Positions 10,315 through 61,994 of a DNA stretch of 64,000 nucleotides are shown one piece after another. The number at the start of each line of letters is the position of its first letter. Positions within the stretch are counted from its first letter, which is position 1. The position numbers and the translations under genes are program-made. The DNA lies in assembly GCA_016935525.1 (NCBI GenBank), contig JAFGQU010000007.1, forward strand, positions 9,057 to 73,056, given 5' to 3'. Under the pieces are notes generated by a model. It saw nothing but the letters and a program-made list of their open reading frames with translations. It was not told the DNA's origin and did not search any database. This stretch comes from Candidatus Omnitrophota bacterium (GTDB taxonomy: Bacteria; Omnitrophota; Gorgyraeia; Duberdicusellales; 4484-171).

Positions 10315-10362
10315 AAAACAAAAAAAAGGCGATGTCCGGTTACGAACATCGCCTTTTTTATT
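10315..10362. terminator. bidirectional rho-independent terminator between convergent gpmA and the FtsZ-like gene
   Basis: A-run, stem AGGCGATGT/ACATCGCCT, then T-run. Confidence 0.7.
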
Positions 10363-10368
10363 CTCTCT

Positions 10369-11652
10369 CTATCCTTTTAATTCAGCTAATCTTTTTTCCG
10401 GAAGATTTAACCCGCCGATAATGGTATATACTCTCAGTGAATCACGGTCATCTTCGTACACGCCGCGGTGAATAGTCGCCTTGCCGGTGATTTCCGATAA
10501 CACATCAAACGCATAGTTGATTCGGTCCTGCAGGCCCGATACGTTGGCCATCAGTTTTTTCCCGCCCACGACGATACATCCGGCTACTTTCGCGGTCGAC
10601 AGATCGAACCCGCCGGCAAGTAATGTCTTTTCCAAATTGTTCTTTACGGCCCGGGAGATGGAATAGGTGTCGGTGATCTGTTTTACCTTGGTAATACCCA
10701 TGATCGCGCATCCGCCGGTTTCGATGATACTCTGGTAATCTACGGTGTCAAATGAAGTATATCGGCTTGATTGCGCGCTGAGTTTGTTGAATATATCAAA
10801 CAAACCGGAAACCGTACTGTTGATGGTCGGCCAGAACGATTTCACGGTAAGGCCCGGATACAATTTGTTGATCCTTTCGTTATCGATGATGATCAGCGGA
10901 GAAAGTTTTCCCGCCTCGGCAAGTTTACCGAGATCGTTTGCGATCTTATACGCGTTCTTGGCGACCAGAGGAGAACTGGCTTCCCCGATGGTCGGTAACG
11001 TCATGATCGCCCCTACGCTTTTGTCGGGATTGGCGATTCCATTGTGGCGGGCGTATTTCTTTGCCGTTTCGATCAGTTCCAGCACGCCTCCCGAACCGGT
11101 CCCGCCGCCGGCTCCGAAACATACCATGATATGTTTCACGCCGGACGCGAACAGTTTACGGATGGTGTGCAATATCTCCTGCTGATATTTTTGTGCCGCG
11201 TCTTTTCCACGAGCCATATCTTTTCCCGCGCCCATCTCGCCGATATCCATGAGGAACTTCTGGTTTTTAGGGATCTCTAAAAGATCGAGATCATGATGGG
11301 ACGTATTTACGGCAAGCACTTTACGGTAACCCAGATCATAAAAAGATTTGACCAGTCTTCCGCCGCATTGCCCGGCGCCGATCCAAGCAAATTGAGTCGA
11401 GCCTTGAGTAATATCGATAAGTCCGGCTTCTTCTTTTACCTGCGGTTCGTACTGTTCAAGATCGAGAGTAGGGATCGCGGCTTTTTTTGACGGTTTTTTT
11501 ACGGTTGTTTTTTTTGCCGGAGCTTTCTTTTTTGCTTTCGCTTTTACTTTTTTTACCGGTTTTTTCTTGGCAACTTTCTTCTTAGCGGTTTTCTTTGTCG
11601 CCTTTTTCTTGATAACCTTTTTCTTCGCGGCTTTGCGTTTTGTTTTCGCCAT
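10369..11652 (-). CDS. FtsZ/tubulin-superfamily GTPase with tubulin-type signatures and N-terminal Lys/Ala-rich tail
   Basis: AWIGAGQCGGR (T1 loop), GAGGGTGSGG (T4), IIDNERINKL and TSFDTVDYQSIIETGGCAIMG (T7-like) align to FtsZ; about 60 aa KKxAKK repeat tail at the N-terminus; GGAGG RBS. Confidence 0.8.
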   Translation of the reverse strand: MAKTKRKAAKKKVIKKKATKKTAKKKVAKKKPVKKVKAKAKKKAPAKKTTVKKPSKKAAIPTLDLEQYEPQVKEEAGLIDITQGSTQFAWIGAGQCGGRLVKSFYDLGYRKVLAVNTSHHDLDLLEIPKNQKFLMDIGEMGAGKDMARGKDAAQKYQQEILHTIRKLFASGVKHIMVCFGAGGGTGSGGVLELIETAKKYARHNGIANPDKSVGAIMTLPTIGEASSPLVAKNAYKIANDLGKLAEAGKLSPLIIIDNERINKLYPGLTVKSFWPTINSTVSGLFDIFNKLSAQSSRYTSFDTVDYQSIIETGGCAIMGITKVKQITDTYSISRAVKNNLEKTLLAGGFDLSTAKVAGCIVVGGKKLMANVSGLQDRINYAFDVLSEITGKATIHRGVYEDDRDSLRVYTIIGGLNLPEKRLAELKG

Positions 11653-11978
11653 CGATTGCCTCCTTTTTTTCTTCCTTCCTGTTAAAAGTGCTTATTTACT
11701 AATATAGAGTATTTTATATTTTTATAAGTTTCATTGTCAAGTTCTATTTTTGAACCCTCTGATTACGGGGATTCGGATACATTAAGGGCGGATTCAGAAA
11801 ATCACTGTGTTTTTTTTAAAATCGTTGCAATCAAATCCTTCCCCTCTGTACACGAGAGAGGGGGGAAGAACTCTATTTTCTCCCTTGGTGAACGGGCAAA
11901 TTTACGTATAATAGTAATATACATACCGGAACGACTGCGGTTTTAACGATTTTCTTATTACACAAAGGGAAACACGAT

Positions 11979-13553
11979 ATGAATACACTGCCTTTTAAAT
12001 CGGTCATCTTCGACTTAGACGGAGTCGTGACCCAGACCGCGCTGGTCCATTCCCGGGCCTGGAAAGAGATGTTTGATGGATATCTGCGGGCGCGCCAGGG
12101 CCGTGACGGCGGAGATTTCCGTGAGTTTACCGATCAGGATTATCTTACCTATGTCGACGGGAAACCCCGTTACGAAGGAGTAAAAAGTTTTCTTGAATCA
12201 CGTGATATACATATCCCTTACGGTGCCCCCAAAGATCCTCCCGATAAAGAGACGGTGTGCGGTCTGGGAAATAAAAAGAATGATACGTTTCGCCAGGTCC
12301 TGTCGCGGGAGAAACCGAAGATGTACCCTACTACCGTCGAGCTGATAAAAAAACTTAAAGAGCAGGGGATAAAAATAGGCGTCGCGTCTTCTTCGAAAAA
12401 TTGTCAATTCATCCTTCAGGCCGCCGGTATCGAAGAATTATTTGAAGCCCGGGTAGACGGAGTGGTATCGGTCGAATTAGGATTAAAAGGTAAACCCGAA
12501 GGAGATATTTTTGTCCGGGCTGCGGCTCACCTTGAGACCTTACCGGCAGAATCGGTAGTGGTCGAAGATGCCGAAAGCGGAATCGCCGCCGGAAGAAACG
12601 GCGGGTTTAGGCTTGTCATCGGGATCGCCCGGAACAATAATCAAAAAGAACTGCTTGAAAACGGCGCCGATGTAGTTGTCGACGATCTGGGGGGAATCGA
12701 TATCGAGTGGATCAAAAAATGGTTTATGCGTCCTGCCCGTCCGCTTCTCGGGAGCAGCACCGGGTTAGACCAGGAGATTCCTGATGTGACCGTGCATCCG
12801 GCCCATCTACGAAGCCCGAAAGGGTTTCCGTTCGGTAAAGAACCGGTATTTTTTCTCGATTATGACGGTACGCTTACTCCTATCGTGGAACGTCCGGAAC
12901 TCGCGGTGCTTACGGAGGAGATGCGCGGTATCGTGAAAAGACTTTCGCAAAAATATCAGACCGCGATCGTATCCGGCCGGATGAGAGAAGACGTGGAAAA
13001 ACTGGTCGCAATCGACGGCCTGTTCTATGCCGGCAGTCACGGGTTCGACATCAAAGGGCCTGACGTTTCACTGATCGAGCCTCAAGCCGAAAAGACGCTG
13101 GCGTTAGTCGCCGAGGTGATCAAAAAATTAAAAAAAGAATTAGGCTCAATCGAAAAATTGCTGGTGGAAGAGAAAAAATTCAGTGTCGCGGTACATTATC
13201 GTTGTGTCGACCCTAAAGACCATGCGAAGATCAAACCGGTTATCGATAATATCCTTGCCGGGGAGATCCGCCTGCGGGTGATGGAAGGGAAGATGGTATA
13301 CGAGATCTTACCGGCGATCGACTGGAATAAAGGGAAAGCTATCCGCTGGATAATGAATGCGCTTGGGCTTTCCTGGAATACTTCCCAGGTAGTATATATC
13401 GGGGATGACGTTACCGATGAAGATGCGTTTCGGGTCGTCGCCACGCGTGGGGTCCCGATTCTGGTACATGAAGAAGCCCGGCCGACTGCCGCGGATTTTT
13501 ATTTAAAAGATCCCGGTCAGGTACAGAAGTTTTTCGAAACACTGCTTACATAA
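11979..13553 (+). CDS. fusion of beta-phosphoglucomutase-like HAD domain and trehalose-6-phosphate phosphatase (OtsB-like) domain
   Basis: N-terminal FDLDGVVTQT HAD-IA motifs; C-terminal FFLDYDGTLTP and GDDVTDEDAF HAD-IIB motifs. Confidence 0.75.
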   Translation: MNTLPFKSVIFDLDGVVTQTALVHSRAWKEMFDGYLRARQGRDGGDFREFTDQDYLTYVDGKPRYEGVKSFLESRDIHIPYGAPKDPPDKETVCGLGNKKNDTFRQVLSREKPKMYPTTVELIKKLKEQGIKIGVASSSKNCQFILQAAGIEELFEARVDGVVSVELGLKGKPEGDIFVRAAAHLETLPAESVVVEDAESGIAAGRNGGFRLVIGIARNNNQKELLENGADVVVDDLGGIDIEWIKKWFMRPARPLLGSSTGLDQEIPDVTVHPAHLRSPKGFPFGKEPVFFLDYDGTLTPIVERPELAVLTEEMRGIVKRLSQKYQTAIVSGRMREDVEKLVAIDGLFYAGSHGFDIKGPDVSLIEPQAEKTLALVAEVIKKLKKELGSIEKLLVEEKKFSVAVHYRCVDPKDHAKIKPVIDNILAGEIRLRVMEGKMVYEILPAIDWNKGKAIRWIMNALGLSWNTSQVVYIGDDVTDEDAFRVVATRGVPILVHEEARPTAADFYLKDPGQVQKFFETLLT

Positions 13554-13565
13554 CAGAAGACGGCG

Positions 13566-16019
13566 ATGAAACAAGACGAACAAAAAATAAAAAAGGATAT
13601 GTCTTGGAAACTTGTGTATGACCGTTTTGACCCTCCGAGTGAGAGCCTGAGAGAGGCGTTATGCACGTTAGGGAACGGTTATTTTTCGACCCGCGGCGCT
13701 TTTTCGGCATCAAGCGCATCAAAGATCCATTATCCCGGGACCTATATGCACGGTCTTTATAACCGGTTAAGTACCCATGTTGCCGGAAAAACGATCGTGA
13801 ACGAGGACCTGGTGAATTGTCCCGACTGGTTGTTTCTTACTTTTAAAGTAGGTGAAGGCGAGTGGTTTTCTCTTTCGAAGAGCAAGATCCTTTCTTACCG
13901 GCAGGAATTGGATATGTACCGGGGGACTTTAAAGTGGAATATCCGTTTTAAAAACTGCGAGGGGCAAAAAACGTCTTTACAGATCCAGCGTATCGTCAGT
14001 ATGGATCATCCGCATATAGGAGCAATGCGGTACATTATTACTCCGGAGAATTATAGCGATACCGTTACTATCCGTCGTATGCTTGACGGCCGCGTGCAGA
14101 ATATGGGAGTAGAACGGTACCGGCAGCTTAACTCGAAACATTGGCGATTTTCTTCTTCGGGTACGTTCGGTTCTAACGGGATCTTTCTGGTGATGCGGAC
14201 GACCCAATCTCACATCTCGTTCGCCCAGGCGTCAAAGATCCGTATGTTTACCTATGATAATAAAGAGATCCGTCCGGGTATTAAACGGCTGATGCAGGGT
14301 AAAGAGCGGATCGGCCAGGAATTCAGCATTTTTGCCGCCGAGAACCATTCTTATTCGATCGAAAAGACGGTCGCTATCTATACCTCCCGGGATATGGATA
14401 AAAGACGGATTAAATCCGCGGCAATCGCTGCGGTAAAGAAAGCGGGCCGGTTTGACGAACTCCTGGATGCTCATTGTAACGTATGGGAAGGATTGTGGCA
14501 TAAAACCGATATCGATATCAAAGGTGATACGTGTGCTCAAAAAGCTCTCCGGTTTCATATCTTTCATCTTTTACAGACGGCTTCGCCTCATACGGCCGCG
14601 TTGGATGCCGGCCTTCCGGCCCGGGGTCTGCACGGAGAAGCCTATCGTGGGCATATCTTCTGGGATAGTCTGTTTACTATGCCGTTCTATGATTACCATT
14701 TTCCGGAAATTTCCCGGGGATTTTTGAAGTATCGGTACCGCCGGCTTCATAAAGCCCGTCAATATGCGTTAGAGCACGGGTATCGGGGAGCGATGTTTCC
14801 CTGGCAAAGCGGTTCTTCCGGACGAGAGGAGACTCAAATCGTCCATCTTAACCCGATGTCGGGAGAGTGGGGTCCGGATTATAGTTCCCGGCAACGGCAT
14901 GTGTCTTTTGCGATCGCGTACAATATATACCAATACTGGTTGAGAACGCAAGATGACGGATTTTTGAAAAAATATGGTGCGGAGATCATCTTATCGATCG
15001 CTCAGTTCTGCGCGAGTCTGGCTAAATTCGATCCTCTCGATAAACGGTACCATATTAAAGGGGTTATGGGGCCGGACGAATTTCATGAGAAATATCCCGG
15101 CGCAAAAAAAGGAGGATTAAAAGATAATGCCTATACCAATGTTATGGTGGTCGTTACGCTTTTATATGCCAGGGAGATCCTTGAATCGTTACCTCAGACC
15201 GTGCAGGAGAAACTCAGGCATAAATTAAAGATCGATCAGAAAGAACTCGCCCGGTGGGAAGATGTCACCCGCCGGATGAACATCGTGATGAACCGGGCCC
15301 ATATCATCAGCCAGTTCGACGGATATTTTTCTTTAAAGGAACTCGATTGGTCCGAGTACCGCGCCGAATACGGGGATATCCATCGTCTCGACAGGATCCT
15401 TAAAGCCGAAGGGAAATCCCCGGATGCATATAAACTGTCCAAACAGGCCGACGTGTTGATGATATTTTATCTTTTGTCTTATCACGAAGTGCAGGACCTG
15501 TTCAGCCGTTTAGGGTACCGTTTTGACACGGAAGATATATGTAAGAATTACACTTATTATGAAAAACGTACCTCTCACGGATCGACGTTAAGTAAAGTGA
15601 CTCATTGTTTTCTCGCCCACCTTTTAGGGAAAAAGAAAGAATATTATCAGATGTTTCTTGATGTATTGAATTCCGACCTTAACGATGTGCAGGGCGGCAC
15701 GACTCCCGAGGGGATCCATTGCGGAGTGATGGGCGGTTCGATCGACCTGGTGATGAGAGGGTTTGCGGGAGTATGGATACGCCAGGGGGCTCTTACCGTT
15801 TCCCCCCAACTTCCCGCCCATTGGAAAAAAGTCGCATTTAGATTATGTTATCGCCGGCGGTGGATCCATCTTACGGTGACCCGGGATACACTCAGGTTAT
15901 ATCTTGAGGCCGGCGATAACGAAGACGGAGTTGAAGTGGTTGTGAGAGACGAAAAATACATCCTTAAACCGCGACAGGAATATCTGATACAATATAAAAA
16001 GAAAAGAAAGAAAAAATGA
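13566..16019 (+). CDS. glycoside hydrolase family 65 disaccharide phosphorylase (trehalose, trehalose-6-P or kojibiose phosphorylase-like)
   Basis: 817 aa, GH65 architecture; directly follows the beta-PGM gene. Confidence 0.75.
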   Translation: MKQDEQKIKKDMSWKLVYDRFDPPSESLREALCTLGNGYFSTRGAFSASSASKIHYPGTYMHGLYNRLSTHVAGKTIVNEDLVNCPDWLFLTFKVGEGEWFSLSKSKILSYRQELDMYRGTLKWNIRFKNCEGQKTSLQIQRIVSMDHPHIGAMRYIITPENYSDTVTIRRMLDGRVQNMGVERYRQLNSKHWRFSSSGTFGSNGIFLVMRTTQSHISFAQASKIRMFTYDNKEIRPGIKRLMQGKERIGQEFSIFAAENHSYSIEKTVAIYTSRDMDKRRIKSAAIAAVKKAGRFDELLDAHCNVWEGLWHKTDIDIKGDTCAQKALRFHIFHLLQTASPHTAALDAGLPARGLHGEAYRGHIFWDSLFTMPFYDYHFPEISRGFLKYRYRRLHKARQYALEHGYRGAMFPWQSGSSGREETQIVHLNPMSGEWGPDYSSRQRHVSFAIAYNIYQYWLRTQDDGFLKKYGAEIILSIAQFCASLAKFDPLDKRYHIKGVMGPDEFHEKYPGAKKGGLKDNAYTNVMVVVTLLYAREILESLPQTVQEKLRHKLKIDQKELARWEDVTRRMNIVMNRAHIISQFDGYFSLKELDWSEYRAEYGDIHRLDRILKAEGKSPDAYKLSKQADVLMIFYLLSYHEVQDLFSRLGYRFDTEDICKNYTYYEKRTSHGSTLSKVTHCFLAHLLGKKKEYYQMFLDVLNSDLNDVQGGTTPEGIHCGVMGGSIDLVMRGFAGVWIRQGALTVSPQLPAHWKKVAFRLCYRRRWIHLTVTRDTLRLYLEAGDNEDGVEVVVRDEKYILKPRQEYLIQYKKKRKKK

Positions 16020-18435: not shown

Positions 18436-19617
18436 ATGGATAAAAAAATACTTATTGTTTCTCCGGACGAAAACTTAAGGGAAGTGCTCAATTTCTGTTT
18501 TGACGGATGGGGGTACGAGGTATTTTTACGTAATTGGGTCCATCACGACATTAAAGCGGTCAAAAAGGTCTCTCCCGATGTGATCGTAATGGATGTCTGT
18601 GCGGCAAAAAAAGGGCAACTTGAGATGTGCCGTCTTCTTAAAGACGATTTTACGACCGCGTTTATCCCGGTAATCACTTTGATCAATAAACGGCAGTTAC
18701 GTACGCAACTTTTGACGCTTAAACACGGAGTCGATGATTACCTGATCAAACCTCCCGATCCTCTCGATCTGCGGGTGCGGGTCGAGATGGCGCTGCGTCG
18801 GGCTCAATATAGCTATTATGCCAGTGCGCTTACAGGCCTTCCCGGAGGGAGGATCATCGAGGAGGTAGTCAATGAACGGTTCGCTCATAATCAGCCGTTT
18901 TCGTTCGGATACGTCGATATAGATAATTTTAAGTATTTCAATGATGTGTACGGATACCTGAAAGGTGACCGGGTGATCATGCAGACGGCATACATGTTAT
19001 ATAACGCGCTGAAACAGCATGGGAATAAAGAAGATTTTATCGGGCATATCGGCGGGGACGATTTTGTGTTTATTACTACCCCGGATCGGTACACAAAAGT
19101 ATGTCATGGGTTCATTACTCTTTTTGACCGGGTCATCCCGTTCCATTATTCTTTACGTGACCGCCGGCGCAGTTTTATCATCGCCCGGGACCGTACTCAC
19201 AAGATCAGACGCCAATCGCTTATGAGCGTGTCGGTAGCTGTGGTCAACCGGCTGGTACCGTCGGAGATCACTCACGTGATCCAGATCAATGAACGGGTCG
19301 CCGAGATCAAACATTATCTTAAAGGATTGGAAGGGAGCCATTACATGGCTGACCGTCGCAATACCGATATTCAAAAGACAGTCGCACCGGTCGGATCGGT
19401 CAAAGAACAGATGCCGGTGCTGTATAAACCGTTGGGCCAGATACTGCTTGATAGAGAGATGATTTCTCAGGAACAATTGGATGAGGCGTTACGCCTTCAC
19501 TGGAAACGCGGATTGATCCTGGGCGAAACCCTGAAAGAGCTGGGGTTCTTAAAAGAGAAAGAGTTACAGGAAGCGCTTAAGACCCAACAGTCCGATGTCT
19601 CGCGCCGGCCGGGATAA
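18436..19617 (+). CDS. REC - GGDEF (GGDDF variant) - MshEN-like c-di-GMP-binding domain fusion protein
   Basis: receiver with VIVMDV and IKP; ALTGLPGGR...GHIGGDDFVFI GGDEF core; C-terminal tandem PLGQILLDREMISQEQLDEALRLH and RGLILGETLKELGFLKEKELQEALKTQ MshEN motifs. Confidence 0.7.
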   Translation: MDKKILIVSPDENLREVLNFCFDGWGYEVFLRNWVHHDIKAVKKVSPDVIVMDVCAAKKGQLEMCRLLKDDFTTAFIPVITLINKRQLRTQLLTLKHGVDDYLIKPPDPLDLRVRVEMALRRAQYSYYASALTGLPGGRIIEEVVNERFAHNQPFSFGYVDIDNFKYFNDVYGYLKGDRVIMQTAYMLYNALKQHGNKEDFIGHIGGDDFVFITTPDRYTKVCHGFITLFDRVIPFHYSLRDRRRSFIIARDRTHKIRRQSLMSVSVAVVNRLVPSEITHVIQINERVAEIKHYLKGLEGSHYMADRRNTDIQKTVAPVGSVKEQMPVLYKPLGQILLDREMISQEQLDEALRLHWKRGLILGETLKELGFLKEKELQEALKTQQSDVSRRPG

Positions 19618-37380: not shown

Positions 37381-37869
37381 ATGAATTGTGATATTTGTCA
37401 TAAAATAGTGGCGACCGTACATCTGACCGAGATCGTCAACGAAAAAGTGGTCGAATTGCATATCTGTCAGAAATGCGCGAAAGTAAAGACCGATGAATTG
37501 AAAAGTCAATTGAGCCTTTCTGACTTTTTAGGCGGGCTTGTCGATAAACCGGATACGAAAAAAACTGTTCCTACCGCGTGCCCTCTCTGCGGATTGACAT
37601 TCAACGAGTTCCGGGAGAAAGGCCGGTTAGGGTGCGGTGAATGTTACGGGGCGTTTAAAGACCAGATCTTGCCGCTGTTTCGTAAGATCCACGGTTCTAC
37701 CCAGCATGTCGGCAAGATCCCCGCGCATGTCGAGAAAAAGATTTTGATCGACCGGGAAAAAGAAGAACTGAAAAACCGGTTGGCCCGGGCGGTGAAACTC
37801 GAGGAGTACGAAGAAGCGGCCCGTATCCGGGATAAATTGAAACATATCCGGCAGAAAAGGAAAAGATAG
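37381..37869 (+). CDS. mcsA: McsA-like activator of protein arginine kinase (zinc fingers plus UVR motif)
   Basis: four CxxC pairs; C-terminal EYEEAARIRDKL UVR motif. Confidence 0.7.
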   Translation: MNCDICHKIVATVHLTEIVNEKVVELHICQKCAKVKTDELKSQLSLSDFLGGLVDKPDTKKTVPTACPLCGLTFNEFREKGRLGCGECYGAFKDQILPLFRKIHGSTQHVGKIPAHVEKKILIDREKEELKNRLARAVKLEEYEEAARIRDKLKHIRQKRKR

Positions 37870-38924
37870 TGTTCGAACATCTCCTGCATAATTCGGAAAG
37901 TTGGCTTAATGCCAAAGGGCCTGACTCCAAAATCGTGATTTCTTCACGCTTGAGGCTTGCCCGTAACCTTAAAGGCAGCGTCTTTTCCAACCGTTGCCGG
38001 TTGCCTCAGAAATATGAAGTGCTGGATGAGGTAAATGCTGCCGCAGGGAAGATCGAACAGTTGCATTCGGCTCATTTCGTAAAGATGGAAGAGATATCTC
38101 AGTTGGACCGCCAGTTTTTGCTGGAGAGGCATCTGATCAGCCAGGAACATACCCTTGCTCCGAAAGGGAAAGGGCTGATCGTGAGCGATGACGAGAAGAT
38201 ATCGATGATGGTAAACGAGGAAGACCATATCCGTCTACAGGTATTGGCTTCGGGATTTGATCTTGACAATATCTGGCAGAAGATAACTGCGCTTGACGAT
38301 GAATTATCCCGCCGTCTCGAATATGCGTTTATGCCGGATCTGGGGTATCTTACCGCCTGTCCTACGAATCTGGGGACGGCGCTGAGAGCGTCGTGCATGT
38401 TGCATCTGCCGGCGTTGGTATTCACTAAAAAGATCAATAAGATCCTTGAACTTTTAACAAAACTTTCGTTTACTGCGCGAGGTTTGTTCGGAGAGGGGAC
38501 GCAGGCGCTGGGGAATTTTTTTCAGGTATCCAATCAGGTCACGTTAGGGCTTTCTGAACCAGAACTTATCGAGAACCTTTCGGGAATAGTGAACCAGGTG
38601 AAAGATCAGGAACAGATCGCTCGTCAAAACCTTTTGAAGAAATATAAATTTACGATAGAAGACAGCGTGTGGCGAGCAGTGGGTATTCTTAAACATGCGC
38701 GGTTAATGGCGACCAAAGAGGCGCTTGCGCATCTTTCCATGTTGTATTTAGGCGTTGATTTAGGTATAATTAAAAAAATCAAGCCGGAAACGATAAATAA
38801 TCTGTTTATTAATATACAACCGGCACATTTACAAAAGATCGAACAGAGAGTTTTACGTGAACAGGAACGGGATTATATCAGAGCGCATCTCATTAGAAAT
38901 AATTTAGGAGGGAAATATGTTTAA
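37869..38924 (+). CDS. mcsB: protein arginine kinase McsB (ATP:guanido phosphotransferase)
   Basis: CPTNLGT phosphagen kinase signature. Confidence 0.8.
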
Positions 38925-41364
38925 TCGATTTACCGAACGAGCACGTAAAGTGCTGGTTTTAGCCAAAGAAGAAGCGAGGCGGTTCAATCATGATTATATC
39001 GGGACCGAACATATCCTGTTGGGCCTGGTGCGGGAAGGAGAAGGAGTCGCCTGCGCGGTGTTGCAGAATTTAGGGGCCGATCTTGACCGGTTGCGTATTG
39101 AGGTCGAGAAATTGATCACTCCCGGCAGTGTGACCGGCGTGGTCGGAGATATTCCTTTTACGCCCCGGGCCAAGAAAGCTCTGGAACTTGCCGCCGAAGA
39201 GGCCCGTACGCTCGGGCATAATTATATCGGGACCGAACATATCCTCCTGGGGCTTATCCGGGAAGGCGAAGGTCTGGCAATGCAGGTCCTTTACAGTCTG
39301 GGAGTGGATTTAGACAAAGTCCGTGAAGAAATAGCATCCCTCTTGGGCGGAACCCATTCGGCTCCCGGCGGCCAGCAGGGCGGGACGGCGCAAAGCGCTT
39401 CGAAGACTCCGGCGCTGGACTCTTTCGGCAGAAATCTGACCAAACTCGCCCGGGAAGGAAAACTTGACCCGGTAATCGGCCGGAGTGTAGAGATCGAACG
39501 GGTGATCCAGATCCTTTCCCGGCGGACTAAAAATAATCCGGTACTTTTAGGAGAAGCCGGGGTAGGAAAGACCGCGATCGTCGAAGGTCTTGCCCAGAGT
39601 ATCGTCAGCGGTAATGTCCCTGAAGTATTACGGAATAAACGGATCATCGGACTTGATCTTGCGCTTATGATCGCCGGGACGAAATACCGCGGACAGTTTG
39701 AAGAACGGATCAAAGCGGTAATGGAAGAGATCAAACGGTCAAAAGAAGTCATTATTTTTATCGATGAATTACATACATTAGTAGGCGCCGGCGCGGCTGA
39801 GGGGGCGATTGACGCGTCCAATATCCTTAAACCTTCGCTTTCCCGCGGAGAGATCCAGTGTATCGGAGCGACGACGCTGGATGAATACCGTAAACATATC
39901 GAAAAAGACGCGGCATTGGAAAGAAGGTTCCAGCCGATCTTTGTAGAACCGAGTACCGTGACCGAAACGGTAGAGATATTGAAAGGGTTACGGGACAAAT
40001 ATGAAGCGCATCACCGGGTAAAATTTACCGATGAAGCGTTGGAAGCCGCGGCGACATTATCCGACCGGTACGTCTCAGGCCGGTTTTTACCGGATAAGGC
40101 TATTGATTTGATCGATGAAGCCGGTGCCCGTTCGCGTCTTGCGGTATTGATTGTCCCGCCGGAAATCCAGGAGCTGGAGAACAAGATAAAGGAGATCATT
40201 AAAGAGAAAGAAGCGTTGATTAAACAACAGGATTTTGAAGCTGCGGCGCGTCTGCGGGACGAAGAAAAAAGCCTGCGGGTGAAACTGGAAAGTCTGCGCC
40301 GGGATTGGGGTAAAAAACGGGACCAGATCGTCCCTAACCTTTCGGTCGATGAAATCGCCAAACTCGTGTCTCAGATCACCGGTATCCCTATTTTCCGGTT
40401 GGAGGAGGCCGAGTCGGATAAATTACTTAAGATGGAAGAAAAGTTAAGCGAGAATGTGATCGGCCAGGAGGAAGCTCTGGCGGCGATTTCCCGAAGCGTC
40501 CGCCGGGCGAGGGCCGGAGTAAAAGAACCGCGCCGGCCTATCGGTTCGTTCATCTTCCTGGGGCCGACCGGTGTAGGAAAGACTTTGCTTGCCCGCGCGC
40601 TTACCGAATTCATGTTCGGCGATGAAGATGCGATGATCCAGCTCGATATGAGTGAATATATGGAAAAATTTAACGTGTCACGTCTGGTCGGCGCTCCTCC
40701 GGGATATGTCGGATACGAGGAAGGCGGACAGCTTACTGAACGGGTCCGTCGTCGTCCTTATTCGGTCATCCTGCTTGATGAGATCGAGAAAGCGCACCCG
40801 GATGTGTTCAATCTGCTGTTACAGATCTTTGAAGAAGGCCGGCTTACCGATAGTTTCGGGAGAAAAGTGGATTTTCGTAATACGATCATTATCATGACTT
40901 CTAACGTCGGCGCCGATATTATTCGTCAAAAAGGGTCGTTAGGGTTCATGGCGGTACAGGAAAATTCGATTAGTTATGATGAGATAAAAAAACATTTGAT
41001 GGAAGAAGTGAAAAAGACGTTTAAACCGGAATTCCTGAACCGGCTGGATGAGATCATTGTGTTTAAACCGCTGAATAAAGAATCATTAGGGAATATTGTC
41101 GATATCGAAATTAATTACGTCAATCAGCGTCTCAAAGACCAGGGGTTCTATGTAGAGTTGACTCCCGATGCGAAAGATTTTTTTACTGAACGGGGATTTG
41201 ATCCGGTGTTCGGGGCAAGGCCTCTTAAACGGGTCATTCAACGGTTTCTGGAAGATCCTCTGGCCGAAGATATTATCCGCGGCCGGTTTTCGGAAGAACT
41301 AAAAAAAGGGGGACAGGTCCGAGTAGTCGCTAAACGCAATAAAGACGAATTAATTTTTGAATGA
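38917..41364 (+). CDS. clpC: ATP-dependent Clp protease ATP-binding subunit ClpC
   Basis: two Clp N repeats, two AAA+ modules ([16 protein letters not shown]), UVR-like linker. Confidence 0.9.
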
Positions 41365-61616: not shown

Positions 61617-61774
61617 TCCTGAAAAATCTAATTCATAACATATTGCATTACAATTAGTTATATAATTTTACGCCAAATCTTGAAATTGTTTTCGAAATAT
61701 GGTATAGAAAAGGTGTAGCAAAATCTTGTTTTTAAAGAACTCTTGAAAATATGTTTTGAAAAAGGCAAACTAAG

Positions 61775-61994
61775 GGAAACCTTAGGGCGTCCGAAGATTC
61801 GGAATTCAACGTTGTGTTGATTTTGGGTCTCTTCGGACCCAGGAACCGTCCAGAACCGAATTTATTCTGGTTTTGCGGCTGGTTCTGGGCAAAGCTTAAG
61901 AGCCTAACGCCTTAAAAATTAAGGCAATGGTCGTCAGCTGCCAAAATGTAAGAAGAAGCAGGGATACCATAGCGTAAGGCTATGGTTTTTTTTT
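61775..61994 (+). ncRNA. candidate structured small RNA ending in a rho-independent terminator
   Basis: UUCG-type hairpin GGGTCTCTTCGGACCC, hairpin CCAGAACC..GGTTCTGG, terminator CCATAGCGTAAGGCTATGG followed by T9; no ORF. Confidence 0.35.

Follow-up and report, generated by a model that had tools for sequence, protein, structure and literature searches.

A chromosomal, TubZ-like member of the FtsZ/tubulin superfamily with a polybasic N-terminal tail in Omnitrophota and Planctomycetota, and its possible tie to DNA

Among the known systems closest to the protein considered here are the TubZ proteins of plasmids and phages (TubZ of pBtoxis, RepX of pXO1, and TubZ of phage c-st), which come with a tubR adaptor gene and tubC repeats and carry a long, flexible C-terminal tail that contacts the TubR-DNA complex. 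Against this background, we analyzed a gene from Candidatus Omnitrophota bacterium, lying in a stretch of 64,000 nucleotides (nt) of assembly GCA_016935525.1 (contig JAFGQU010000007.1, positions 9,057-73,056 of the forward strand; this whole stretch is hereafter called the window). Its product can be securely classed in the FtsZ/tubulin superfamily, within a TubZ-like branch that had not been described before; the gene is chromosomal and stands alone. With TubZ it shares the fold, a TubZ-like_C domain scoring above the cut-off, the T5 “LP..E” and T6 “DN” motifs, and the mechanism that would be expected from them, namely a polar, GTP-driven filament that moves DNA. Identity to TubZ is only ~24%, however, and the gene is chromosomal, has neither a tubR gene nor tubC repeats found beside it, and encodes, instead of the C-terminal tail, an N-terminal polybasic tail followed by an acidic motif. 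Further, the family to which it belongs is extremely conserved, whereas the two plasmid TubZ sequences that we compared sit on long branches.

The product, which begins with MAKTKRKAAKKKVIKKK... and matches P0001 at 100% identity (a hypothetical protein, JXD21_02550, from the metagenome-assembled genome, or MAG, of a Candidatus Omnitrophica bacterium), is laid out as follows, in window coordinates.

10369..11652, minus strand: complete coding sequence of a TubZ-like FtsZ/tubulin-superfamily GTPase; 427 amino acids plus a stop codon, with the ATG start at 11650-11652.
11473..11652, minus strand: N-terminal polybasic tail, residues 1-60; 30 Lys, 12 Ala, and a net charge of +31, with structure predicted by no tool.
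11443..11475, minus strand: acidic short linear motif IPTLDLEQYEP, residues 60-70; recognized by its conservation in 40 sequences and by disorder in the AlphaFold2 (AF2) model.
10858..11388, minus strand: GTPase domain (Pfam Tubulin, PF00091), residues 89-265; 48.6 bits against a cut-off of 33, with a predicted local distance difference test (pLDDT) score of 85-96 in the AF2 model.
11359..11379, minus strand: T1 loop GAGQCGG, residues 92-98; by motif alignment.
11089..11109, minus strand: T4 signature GGGTGSG, residues 182-188; by motif alignment.
10735..10752, minus strand: T7 loop FDTVDY (within SFDTVDY) with the putative catalytic residues D302 and D305; by alignment to D209 and D212 of Escherichia coli FtsZ.
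10393..10782, minus strand: C-terminal (activation) domain (Pfam TubZ-like_C, PF22453), residues 291-420; 29.6 bits against a cut-off of 26, with TubZ as the top structural match.

Alignment and modeling together show a complete predicted tubulin/FtsZ fold, in which every motif for GTP binding and hydrolysis is present, including the T7 aspartates. Specifically, the nucleotide-contact loops T1 to T7 all align with those of FtsZ and TubZ, an IIDNERI motif lies at residue 255, and D302 and D305 occupy the columns of E. coli FtsZ D209 and D212 in a MAFFT alignment of 122 sequences. The AF2 model (pLDDT 82.5; predicted template modeling score 0.84) ends in a helix at residues 365-372 of 373, so that the C-terminus falls within about 10 residues of the last secondary-structure element. 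No C-terminal extension was found, and the window protein is without a linker or an FtsA/ZipA/SepF-binding peptide; the cores of other family members also stop at the C-terminus. Within the acidic motif, the 40 sequences show no variation at P61, L63, L65, and E66 and at least 90% conservation at T62, Y68, E69, and P70; we take this motif to be disordered because its pLDDT is <50. Imperfect tandem repeats with periods of 11-29 nt make up the DNA that encodes the Lys-rich tail, and expansion and contraction of such repeats by slippage would explain the variation in tail length seen across the family (4-353 residues). The core has an isoelectric point of 9.2 in the window protein and a mean of 7.8 in the family (neutral to basic), unlike FtsZ, TubZ, and tubulin, which are acidic. 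An earlier note, made from the letters of the window, had described a 427-residue protein alignable along its length to FtsZ, the motifs listed above together with a T7-like segment, a Lys/Ala-rich tail of about 60 residues, and the lack of a C-terminal linker and FtsA/ZipA peptide; all of these descriptions were borne out, and the catalytic T7 aspartates, on which it had left the matter to be checked, are kept.

Both sequence and structure place the protein nearer to TubZ and CetZ than to the FtsZ of bacteria. The best sequence matches in the Protein Data Bank were TubZ/RepX of pXO1 (E = 2.5e-10, or 8.5e-11 with the family profile) and CetZ1 (2.4e-10), followed by archaeal FtsZ (5e-8) and bacterial FtsZ (1e-6 and weaker), and the query-normalized template modeling (TM) scores from Foldseek were 0.77 for TubZ, 0.69-0.72 for CetZ, and 0.63-0.68 for FtsZ. 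Bacterial FtsZ is farther than TubZ, CetZ, or archaeal FtsZ on both counts. The ftsZ equivalog model TIGR00065 aligned over residues 85-416 (model positions 17-325 of 353) but reached 50.4 bits against a cut-off of 295.2, and the FtsZ_C domain (PF12327) gave no match at E <= 1, though it was found in the canonical FtsZ sequences retrieved for comparison. We built a neighbor-joining tree (a distance method) of 122 sequences, using 365 trimmed columns and 100 bootstraps; besides family members and their phage and plasmid relatives, it included canonical FtsZ and that of E. coli, a typed-in sequence checked by its 46% identity to a database FtsZ. In this tree, the whole TubZ-like group stood apart from bacterial FtsZ and the FtsZ_C-bearing sequences with 100% bootstrap support. 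Mean identity of the family on the trimmed columns was 50% to the phage clade described below, 24% to plasmid TubZ, and 22% to FtsZ.

These results bear on how the gene had been read. The earlier note had called the T1 and T4 residues tubulin-type; they are present as described, but they are not diagnostic of tubulin because a GxGQxG T1 is common to the whole TubZ-like clade, an Alicyclobacillus plasmid TubZ (GLGQYGG), and CetZ (GFGQAGG), and a GGGTGSG T4 also occurs in the canonical FtsZ P0350. Kinship to eukaryotic tubulin on the strength of these residues was thus rejected, the tubulins being structurally more distant. Neither the closest relatives in fold and sequence nor the search for a Tubulin_C domain placed the protein with eukaryote-type tubulins or BtubA/B; FtsZl-1/Tubulin_2 (PF13809) scored 23.5 bits, under its gathering threshold of 27; PhuZ was not the closest fold relative; and the PADLOC models of anti-phage defense gave no match at E <= 0.01. 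The suggestion of a very atypical primary FtsZ fell with the equivalog score, the lack of FtsZ_C, and the bootstrap separation, while that of a distinct cytoskeletal paralog holds as to class. Finally, the note had held that the gene would be lineage-typical, rather than novel, if its relatives shared its loops and tail and it grouped inside ordinary FtsZ: GQCG, GGGTGSG, and the basic tail did prove to be family-wide, but the grouping inside FtsZ did not appear.

The window protein is one of a tight family. Its best 120 homologs all score >616 bits and are 63-74% identical to it, and those that are named come from MAGs of Omnitrophota or Planctomycetota (Phycisphaerae, Sedimentisphaerales, and Anaerohalosphaeraceae); core identity within the family is 69-75%, with 110 invariant columns. 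Among species-representative genomes, we found 99 relatives in 78 loci, all of them in MAGs of Omnitrophota and Planctomycetota groups save for one Aegiribacteria label and several “uncultured Pirellulales” labels; none of the 78 loci comes from a cultured isolate. Every member has the same layout, in which a variable basic tail leads into a near-invariant acidic peptide, (W/L)-x-(I/L)-P-T-L-D-L-E-Q-Y-E-P, and then into a core that ends at the C-terminus. The tail has a median length of 51 residues and an H1-like K/A/T/R/S/P composition (K 23.5%, A 14.4%, T 13.4%, R 10.9%, S 10.2%, and 6.5% hydrophobic residues), with 71 S/TPK[KRA] motifs in 29 proteins. The T7 aspartates are invariant in 85 of 85 A- and C-type members, and T4 reads GGGTG[SG]G in 82 of the 85. 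The stretch from T1 to the C-terminus measures 336 residues in named Omnitrophota vs. 342-344 in named Planctomycetota, and the two groups cluster separately, a pattern that argues for vertical inheritance in each phylum and against constant exchange. In the neighbor-joining tree, the family and its nearest representatives form a clade (87% bootstrap) with very short branches, indicating long-term purifying selection in cells. Members sit among housekeeping genes (e.g., those for MetH, GpmA, AccD, PheT, and ThyX) at host-like GC content, and databases label them “hypothetical” or, generically, “FtsZ/tubulin family protein”, with several called “cell division GTPase FtsZ” by the Joint Genome Institute (JGI). 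Apparent neighbor clusters in 61, 54, 44, and 29 loci were rejected as antisense shadow open reading frames (ORFs) inside the gene itself.

Several MAGs hold two or three family copies on separate contigs, which reflect paralog expansion or, possibly, the binning of related strains:

VRUL01: loci L031 and L058.
CAZLWL01: loci L035, L057, and L063.
JAOUFU01: loci L044 and L062.
CAYVIT01: loci L056 and L083.
DSDH01: loci L066 and L082.

A tandem paralog lies downstream of the family gene in 23 of the 78 loci, and the following B-type paralogs sit directly 3' of it:

L031, 11248-13044: B-type paralog.
L016, 10562-12508: B-type paralog.
L064, 8263-10137: B-type paralog.
L053, 3803-5347: B-type paralog.
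L017, 8077-9849: B-type paralog.
L049, 6708-8288: B-type paralog.

The long B form (514-654 residues) has an acidic N-terminus and a C-terminal extension made up of an NtrC/ZraR-type AAA+ lid and a Fis-type helix-turn-helix (HTH). The extension matches AAA_lid_14 at E = 1e-12 to 1e-20 and, in two of six cases, HTH_8 above the cut-off; against ZraR (1ojl) it scores E = 1.4e-16, in an alignment that reaches into the ZraR HTH. Its GTPase motifs have decayed: the T4 loop is degenerate in 8 of 12 B-type sequences, and among the four with an intact T4, two have Lys at the second T7 Asp, one has Ser at the first, and one has a conservative Asp-to-Glu change, while one more has both a degenerate T4 and a His in place of the second T7 Asp. 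Non-conservative T7 substitutions, in which Lys or His takes the catalytic position or Ser replaces the first Asp, were thus present in 4 of 12 B-types, vs. an altered T7 in 0 of 85 A- and C-types. The occurrence of the B/HTH partner tracks the tail of the A-type protein. Where tail and partner could both be judged, A-types with a tail of <30 residues had such a partner in 8 of 9 loci, vs. 4 of 40 loci for tails of at least 30 residues (Fisher p = 9e-6, a value that ignores phylogenetic non-independence). The window gene encodes a solitary, long-tailed A-type.

Beyond the family itself, an exhaustive search of 1.84 billion representative proteins returned 1132 clusters at E <= 1e-3 and 227 at E <= 1e-30, across which identity declines smoothly from 73% to 30%. 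The tail and acidic peptide are confined to members above ~55% identity and are absent from the phage clade. A profile of divergent members retrieved >541 relatives on IMG/VR viral contigs, some of them 120-241 kb long, while no member of the tight family was found on IMG/VR contigs. The viral contigs look genuine because portal, terminase-like, and head-protease genes adjoin the tubulin gene: portal (E = 3.6e-29) and terminase-like genes at locus L108, a head maturation protease (E = 6e-24) at L099, and T4-type portal genes 2-3 kb from two further phage-clade members. Large terminase (TerL) and portal queries matched 61-62 of 80 viral loci, and they had no match in 1.16 Mb of family flanks nor in the window. 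On known plasmids and cultured phages, relatives were seen at 23-28% identity only (Firmicutes TubZ/RepX and Bacillus phage G), with none of the tight family above 28%. From these searches of known plasmids and phages, of IMG/VR, and of the flanks, carriage of the tight family by plasmids or phages was rejected. The best fold match in BFVD was A0A6J5RW92, an “FtsZ” of an uncultured Caudovirales phage (TM 0.85, 28% identity), and there was a weak match to phrog_17961 (“unknown function”). By sequence, the family shares its ancestry with this large tubulin clade of portal- and terminase-linked phages, although the backbone within the phage-containing clade is weak (0-56% bootstrap), so that the family may be nested in it or sister to it and transfer may have run in either direction. 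The phage clade is an observation in its own right: spanning L085-L164, L168, and L169 (IMG/VR and MAG-binned phage contigs), it is large, apparently undescribed, and distinct from PhuZ, and its tubulin gene lies between small membrane-protein genes and the terminase-portal module, with no TubR-like gene evident.

The reading that we favor, and hold with middling confidence, is that the window protein forms a GTP-driven polar filament that its tail ties directly to DNA. From the complete T loops and the precedent of the superfamily (TubZ, FtsZ, and CetZ), the protein would assemble head to tail into polar filaments in a GTP-dependent, GTP-hydrolyzing manner, the T7 loop of one subunit activating hydrolysis in the next. 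Judging from composition and comparative genomics, the 60-residue Lys/Ala tail, a polycation, would bind the filament directly to a polyanion, for which nucleoid DNA is the likeliest candidate. The two parts that a type III partition system keeps separate, TubZ as motor and TubR as DNA adaptor, would then be merged in one chain, and the filament might move or segregate, position, or compact chromosomal DNA, while IPTLDLEQYEP might dock on a neighboring subunit or a partner, or mask the basic tail. DNA is favored as the ligand because the module that substitutes for the tail in paired loci is a DNA-binding HTH and because the tail is H1-like with few hydrophobic residues. No plausible ORF for a TubR-like protein was present in the 326-bp upstream region, there was no conserved small neighbor in the 78 loci, and no direct-repeat family resembling tubC was found in 11640-11990; at each of the plasmid TubZ loci L165 and L166, a small gene sits where tubR is expected.

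Several points weigh against this reading. RNA, polyphosphate, or acidic membranes are equally plausible ligands of a polybasic disordered region; matches of the tail to H1-like models are weak (NF038053, E = 0.12; DUF6465, E = 0.11); and the acidic motif has no identified partner. No gene neighbor is conserved across the 78 loci beyond local synteny (the best, accD, occurs in 14 of 78), so that no process is pointed to, and the phage relatives lie beside lysis-like and packaging genes rather than partition genes. To these may be added the non-independence behind the tail-partner statistic and the fact that all members come from MAGs, so that taxonomic labels and copy numbers may hold binning errors. 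Overall, the proposed function is a reasoned hypothesis, and DNA binding, which the earlier note had also raised, is plausible but unproven.

The immediate surroundings of the gene look like those of an independent transcription unit, with these signals:

11659..11663, minus strand: Shine-Dalgarno sequence GGAGG, 6 nt 5' of the ATG, read from the sequence.
11711..11740, minus strand (11740->11711): putative sigma-70-like promoter TTGACA-18 nt-TAAAAT, a consensus match at 11 of 12 positions, ~60 nt upstream of the ATG.
10322..10359, minus strand (10359->10322): intrinsic terminator hairpin following the stop codon, with a 17-bp stem flanked by A and T runs.

The terminator could also be used by the convergent gpmA-like gene next to it. 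The GGAGG ribosome-binding site and the description as a single gene outside any division cluster, both given in the earlier note, are confirmed by these signals and by the absence of division and cell wall (dcw) genes among the 20 window ORFs scanned. An artefactual tail arising from a wrong start codon was rejected: the annotated ATG is accepted because the ribosome-binding site and promoter fit it, because a start at the next Met, M125, would delete the T1 loop, and because basic tails recur in homologs with unrelated DNA sequences. No second tubulin/FtsZ homolog or canonical ftsZ was found in the 64 kb (tblastn with the protein's own core and canonical FtsZ as queries), nor was a tRNA found in the window, and the GC content of the gene (0.49-0.51) matches its surroundings. 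On one flank lies the convergent gpmA-like gene (His_Phos_1), with genes for an M48 peptidase, a response regulator, and a MetH-like protein upstream of it, and on the other a divergent operon for an HAD/trehalose-phosphatase and a GH65 enzyme. Specifically, window 11979-16019 (plus strand) encodes a fused beta-phosphoglucomutase-like HAD/trehalose-phosphatase protein (524 residues) and then a GH65 phosphorylase (817 residues); together they look like a compact operon of disaccharide phosphorylase type, divergently oriented to the tubulin-like gene. Elsewhere in the window are a GGDEF response regulator (18436-19617) and a c-di-GMP-I riboswitch aptamer (61754-61945, plus strand; 37.5 bits against an Rfam gathering score of 35). 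The window also holds, at 37381-41364 (plus strand), an operon for McsA-like (UVR motif), McsB-like (ATP:guanido phosphotransferase), and ClpC-like proteins, here in an Omnitrophota MAG; the McsA/McsB/ClpC protein-arginine-kinase quality-control module is best known from Firmicutes.

The main rival to a DNA-tethered filament is a cytokinetic one that replaces FtsZ in the FtsZ-less lineages of the Planctomycetes-Verrucomicrobia-Chlamydiae (PVC) group, anchored to the membrane by its basic tail or, via an adaptor such as FtsA, by its acidic peptide; we regard this as possible, if unlikely. The conservation of 63-74% across phyla, together with a strong promoter and ribosome-binding site, would fit a core cellular role, and the IPT-L of the acidic motif may resemble the FtsZ C-terminal peptide D-I-P-x-F-L-R. 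The hosts fit as well, since Planctomycetota, including Phycisphaerae, are reported to be wholly without ftsZ (PMC12673574; PMC12283558), and Supplementary Data 2 of Pende et al. 2021 (PMC8178401; column order verified as FtsZ, SepF, FtsA) lists FtsZ as absent in four of five Omnitrophica genomes, three of them with FtsA. The same survey, however, reports the cultured Sedimentisphaerales Limihaloglobus and Sedimentisphaera to be devoid of FtsZ-like proteins, which makes the family patchy within its own orders, and the Phycisphaerae are mostly without FtsA (PMC12673574) yet keep the motif. Moreover, the gene never adjoins dcw genes in the window or in the 78 loci, it occurs in two or three copies or with tandem paralogs in several MAGs, its tail has no amphipathic or hydrophobic membrane-targeting features (6.5% hydrophobic), and its partner paralog bears a DNA-binding HTH. 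As a side observation on the same survey (Pende et al. 2021, PMC8178401), OLB16 has two listed “FtsZ” proteins. The accession number of one, KXK40362.1, directly neighbors that of FtsA; the other, KXK35036.1, may belong to the window family. A reading more distant from the data than replacement is that the gene is the organism's primary, fast-evolving FtsZ ortholog, relocated out of its dcw cluster. The JGI label and the full-length alignment to the ftsZ model speak for it, but we find it barely credible given the score of 50.4 vs. 295.2 bits, the missing FtsZ_C domain, the closeness of TubZ, CetZ, and archaeal FtsZ relative to bacterial FtsZ (with 22% identity to FtsZ vs. 50% to the phage clade), the full bootstrap separation, and a family that evolves slowly, not fast.

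The tail could also serve something other than DNA, in a cytomotive or scaffolding filament where it bundles or spaces neighbors, binds RNA or polyphosphate, or takes part in phosphoregulation. Its hypervariable length and conserved composition are as in entropic linkers, its Ser, Thr, and S/TPK motifs are possible kinase sites, and the adjacency of acidic motif and basic tail suggests intramolecular or inter-filament electrostatics. The complementarity of tail and HTH partner is most simply explained by a shared DNA-binding role, however, and the core is not acidic (isoelectric point 7.8-9.2), so that attraction between tail and core would be weak; we therefore consider a non-DNA role quite unlikely. 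That the gene instead serves a mobile element, as a prophage or plasmid partition or phage-positioning gene of TubZ type that happens to lie in the chromosome, seems improbable. Its nearest relatives do lie on phage contigs of up to 241 kb (>541, at ~40-50% identity) beside portal, terminase, or head-protease genes, the best BFVD match (TM 0.85) is a Caudovirales protein, phrog_17961 is weakly matched, and the distribution is patchy with several copies in some MAGs. The tight family itself, by contrast, has no relative on IMG/VR contigs, no portal or terminase match in its 1.16 Mb of flanks or in the window, and no integrase-adjacent context, window tRNA, TubR, or tubC; it lies among housekeeping neighbors (MetH, GpmA, AccD, PheT, and ThyX) at host-like GC content and forms a clade of 87% bootstrap with very short branches. 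A bolder proposal, which we regard as a rather doubtful speculation, would see in the family the tubulin-superfamily cytoskeleton that “FtsZ-less” PVC bacteria have seemed to lack: a relative of phage tubulins, recruited to the cell for chromosome segregation and/or division in uncultured Phycisphaerae and Omnitrophota. It would act either alone, as a homopolymer whose DNA tether is built in, or in an A/B heterodimer, analogous to alpha/beta-tubulin, in which a non-catalytic B supplies the HTH.

We found no description of the family in the literature searched (open-access papers and bioRxiv), including the superfamily survey of Santana-Molina et al. 2023 and reviews of jumbo-phage tubulins. 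Its general kind, a TubZ-like cytomotive GTPase, is known; what is unusual is the N-terminal polycationic tail, the acidic linear motif, the extreme conservation, the chromosomal residence in PVC lineages noted for lacking FtsZ, the kinship to phage tubulins, and the optional, degenerate HTH partner. A chromosomal tubulin-superfamily GTPase, 63-74% identical across two phyla, exists in uncultured members of lineages noted for lacking FtsZ. This matters for surveys of division genes, since those based on COG or eggNOG may count the family as FtsZ and stricter ones may filter it out, and either error would distort published maps of presence and absence. The first error is suggested by the JGI labeling of members as “cell division GTPase FtsZ”, and Henriques et al. 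2025 reported dcw genes to be conserved in Omnitrophota from eggNOG/COG assignments. If our favored reading is true, this would be the first motor of TubZ type to carry its own polycationic DNA tether in place of the TubR adaptor, and the family may exemplify the exchange of cytoskeletal proteins between phages and cells.

Set beside the other known systems, the family is closest in sequence to the phage tubulin clade (IMG/VR loci L085-L164; phrog_17961), at ~40-50% identity, and shares with it the GxGQxG T1, an equal core length, and a T7 of FDxxDY; the phage proteins, however, lack the polybasic tail and IPTLDLEQYEP and are encoded beside terminase, portal, and small membrane-protein genes, whereas the window family is cellular. 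CetZ, the archaeal cell-shape homolog of tubulin, is ~21% identical to the window protein and, to our knowledge, has no polybasic N-terminal tail. With FtsZ, the window protein has in common the superfamily fold, the GTPase motifs, and the T7 Asp-x-x-Asp, while it fails the equivalog model and lacks FtsZ_C, the C-terminal linker and peptide, and the dcw context. Its tail resembles those of histone H1-like proteins, Hc1-Hc2, and the HU C-terminal-domain type in its Lys, Ala, Pro, Ser, and Thr composition, its S/TPK-type motifs, its high positive charge, and its low-complexity repeats, although the model matches given above are weak and driven by composition; we know of no earlier description of a Lys/Ala-rich tail fused to a tubulin-fold GTPase. 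Finally, for the tandem A/B pairs only, the likeness is to the alpha/beta-tubulin and BtubA/B heterodimers; the pairs are tandem paralogs whose A member keeps all catalytic motifs, while the B members show the T4 and T7 changes given above. The T7 changes of the B-types recall, in particular, the catalytic asymmetry by which beta-tubulin carries Lys254 and alpha-tubulin Glu254, and in the A/B pairs of related genomes bacteria have a counterpart to that asymmetry.

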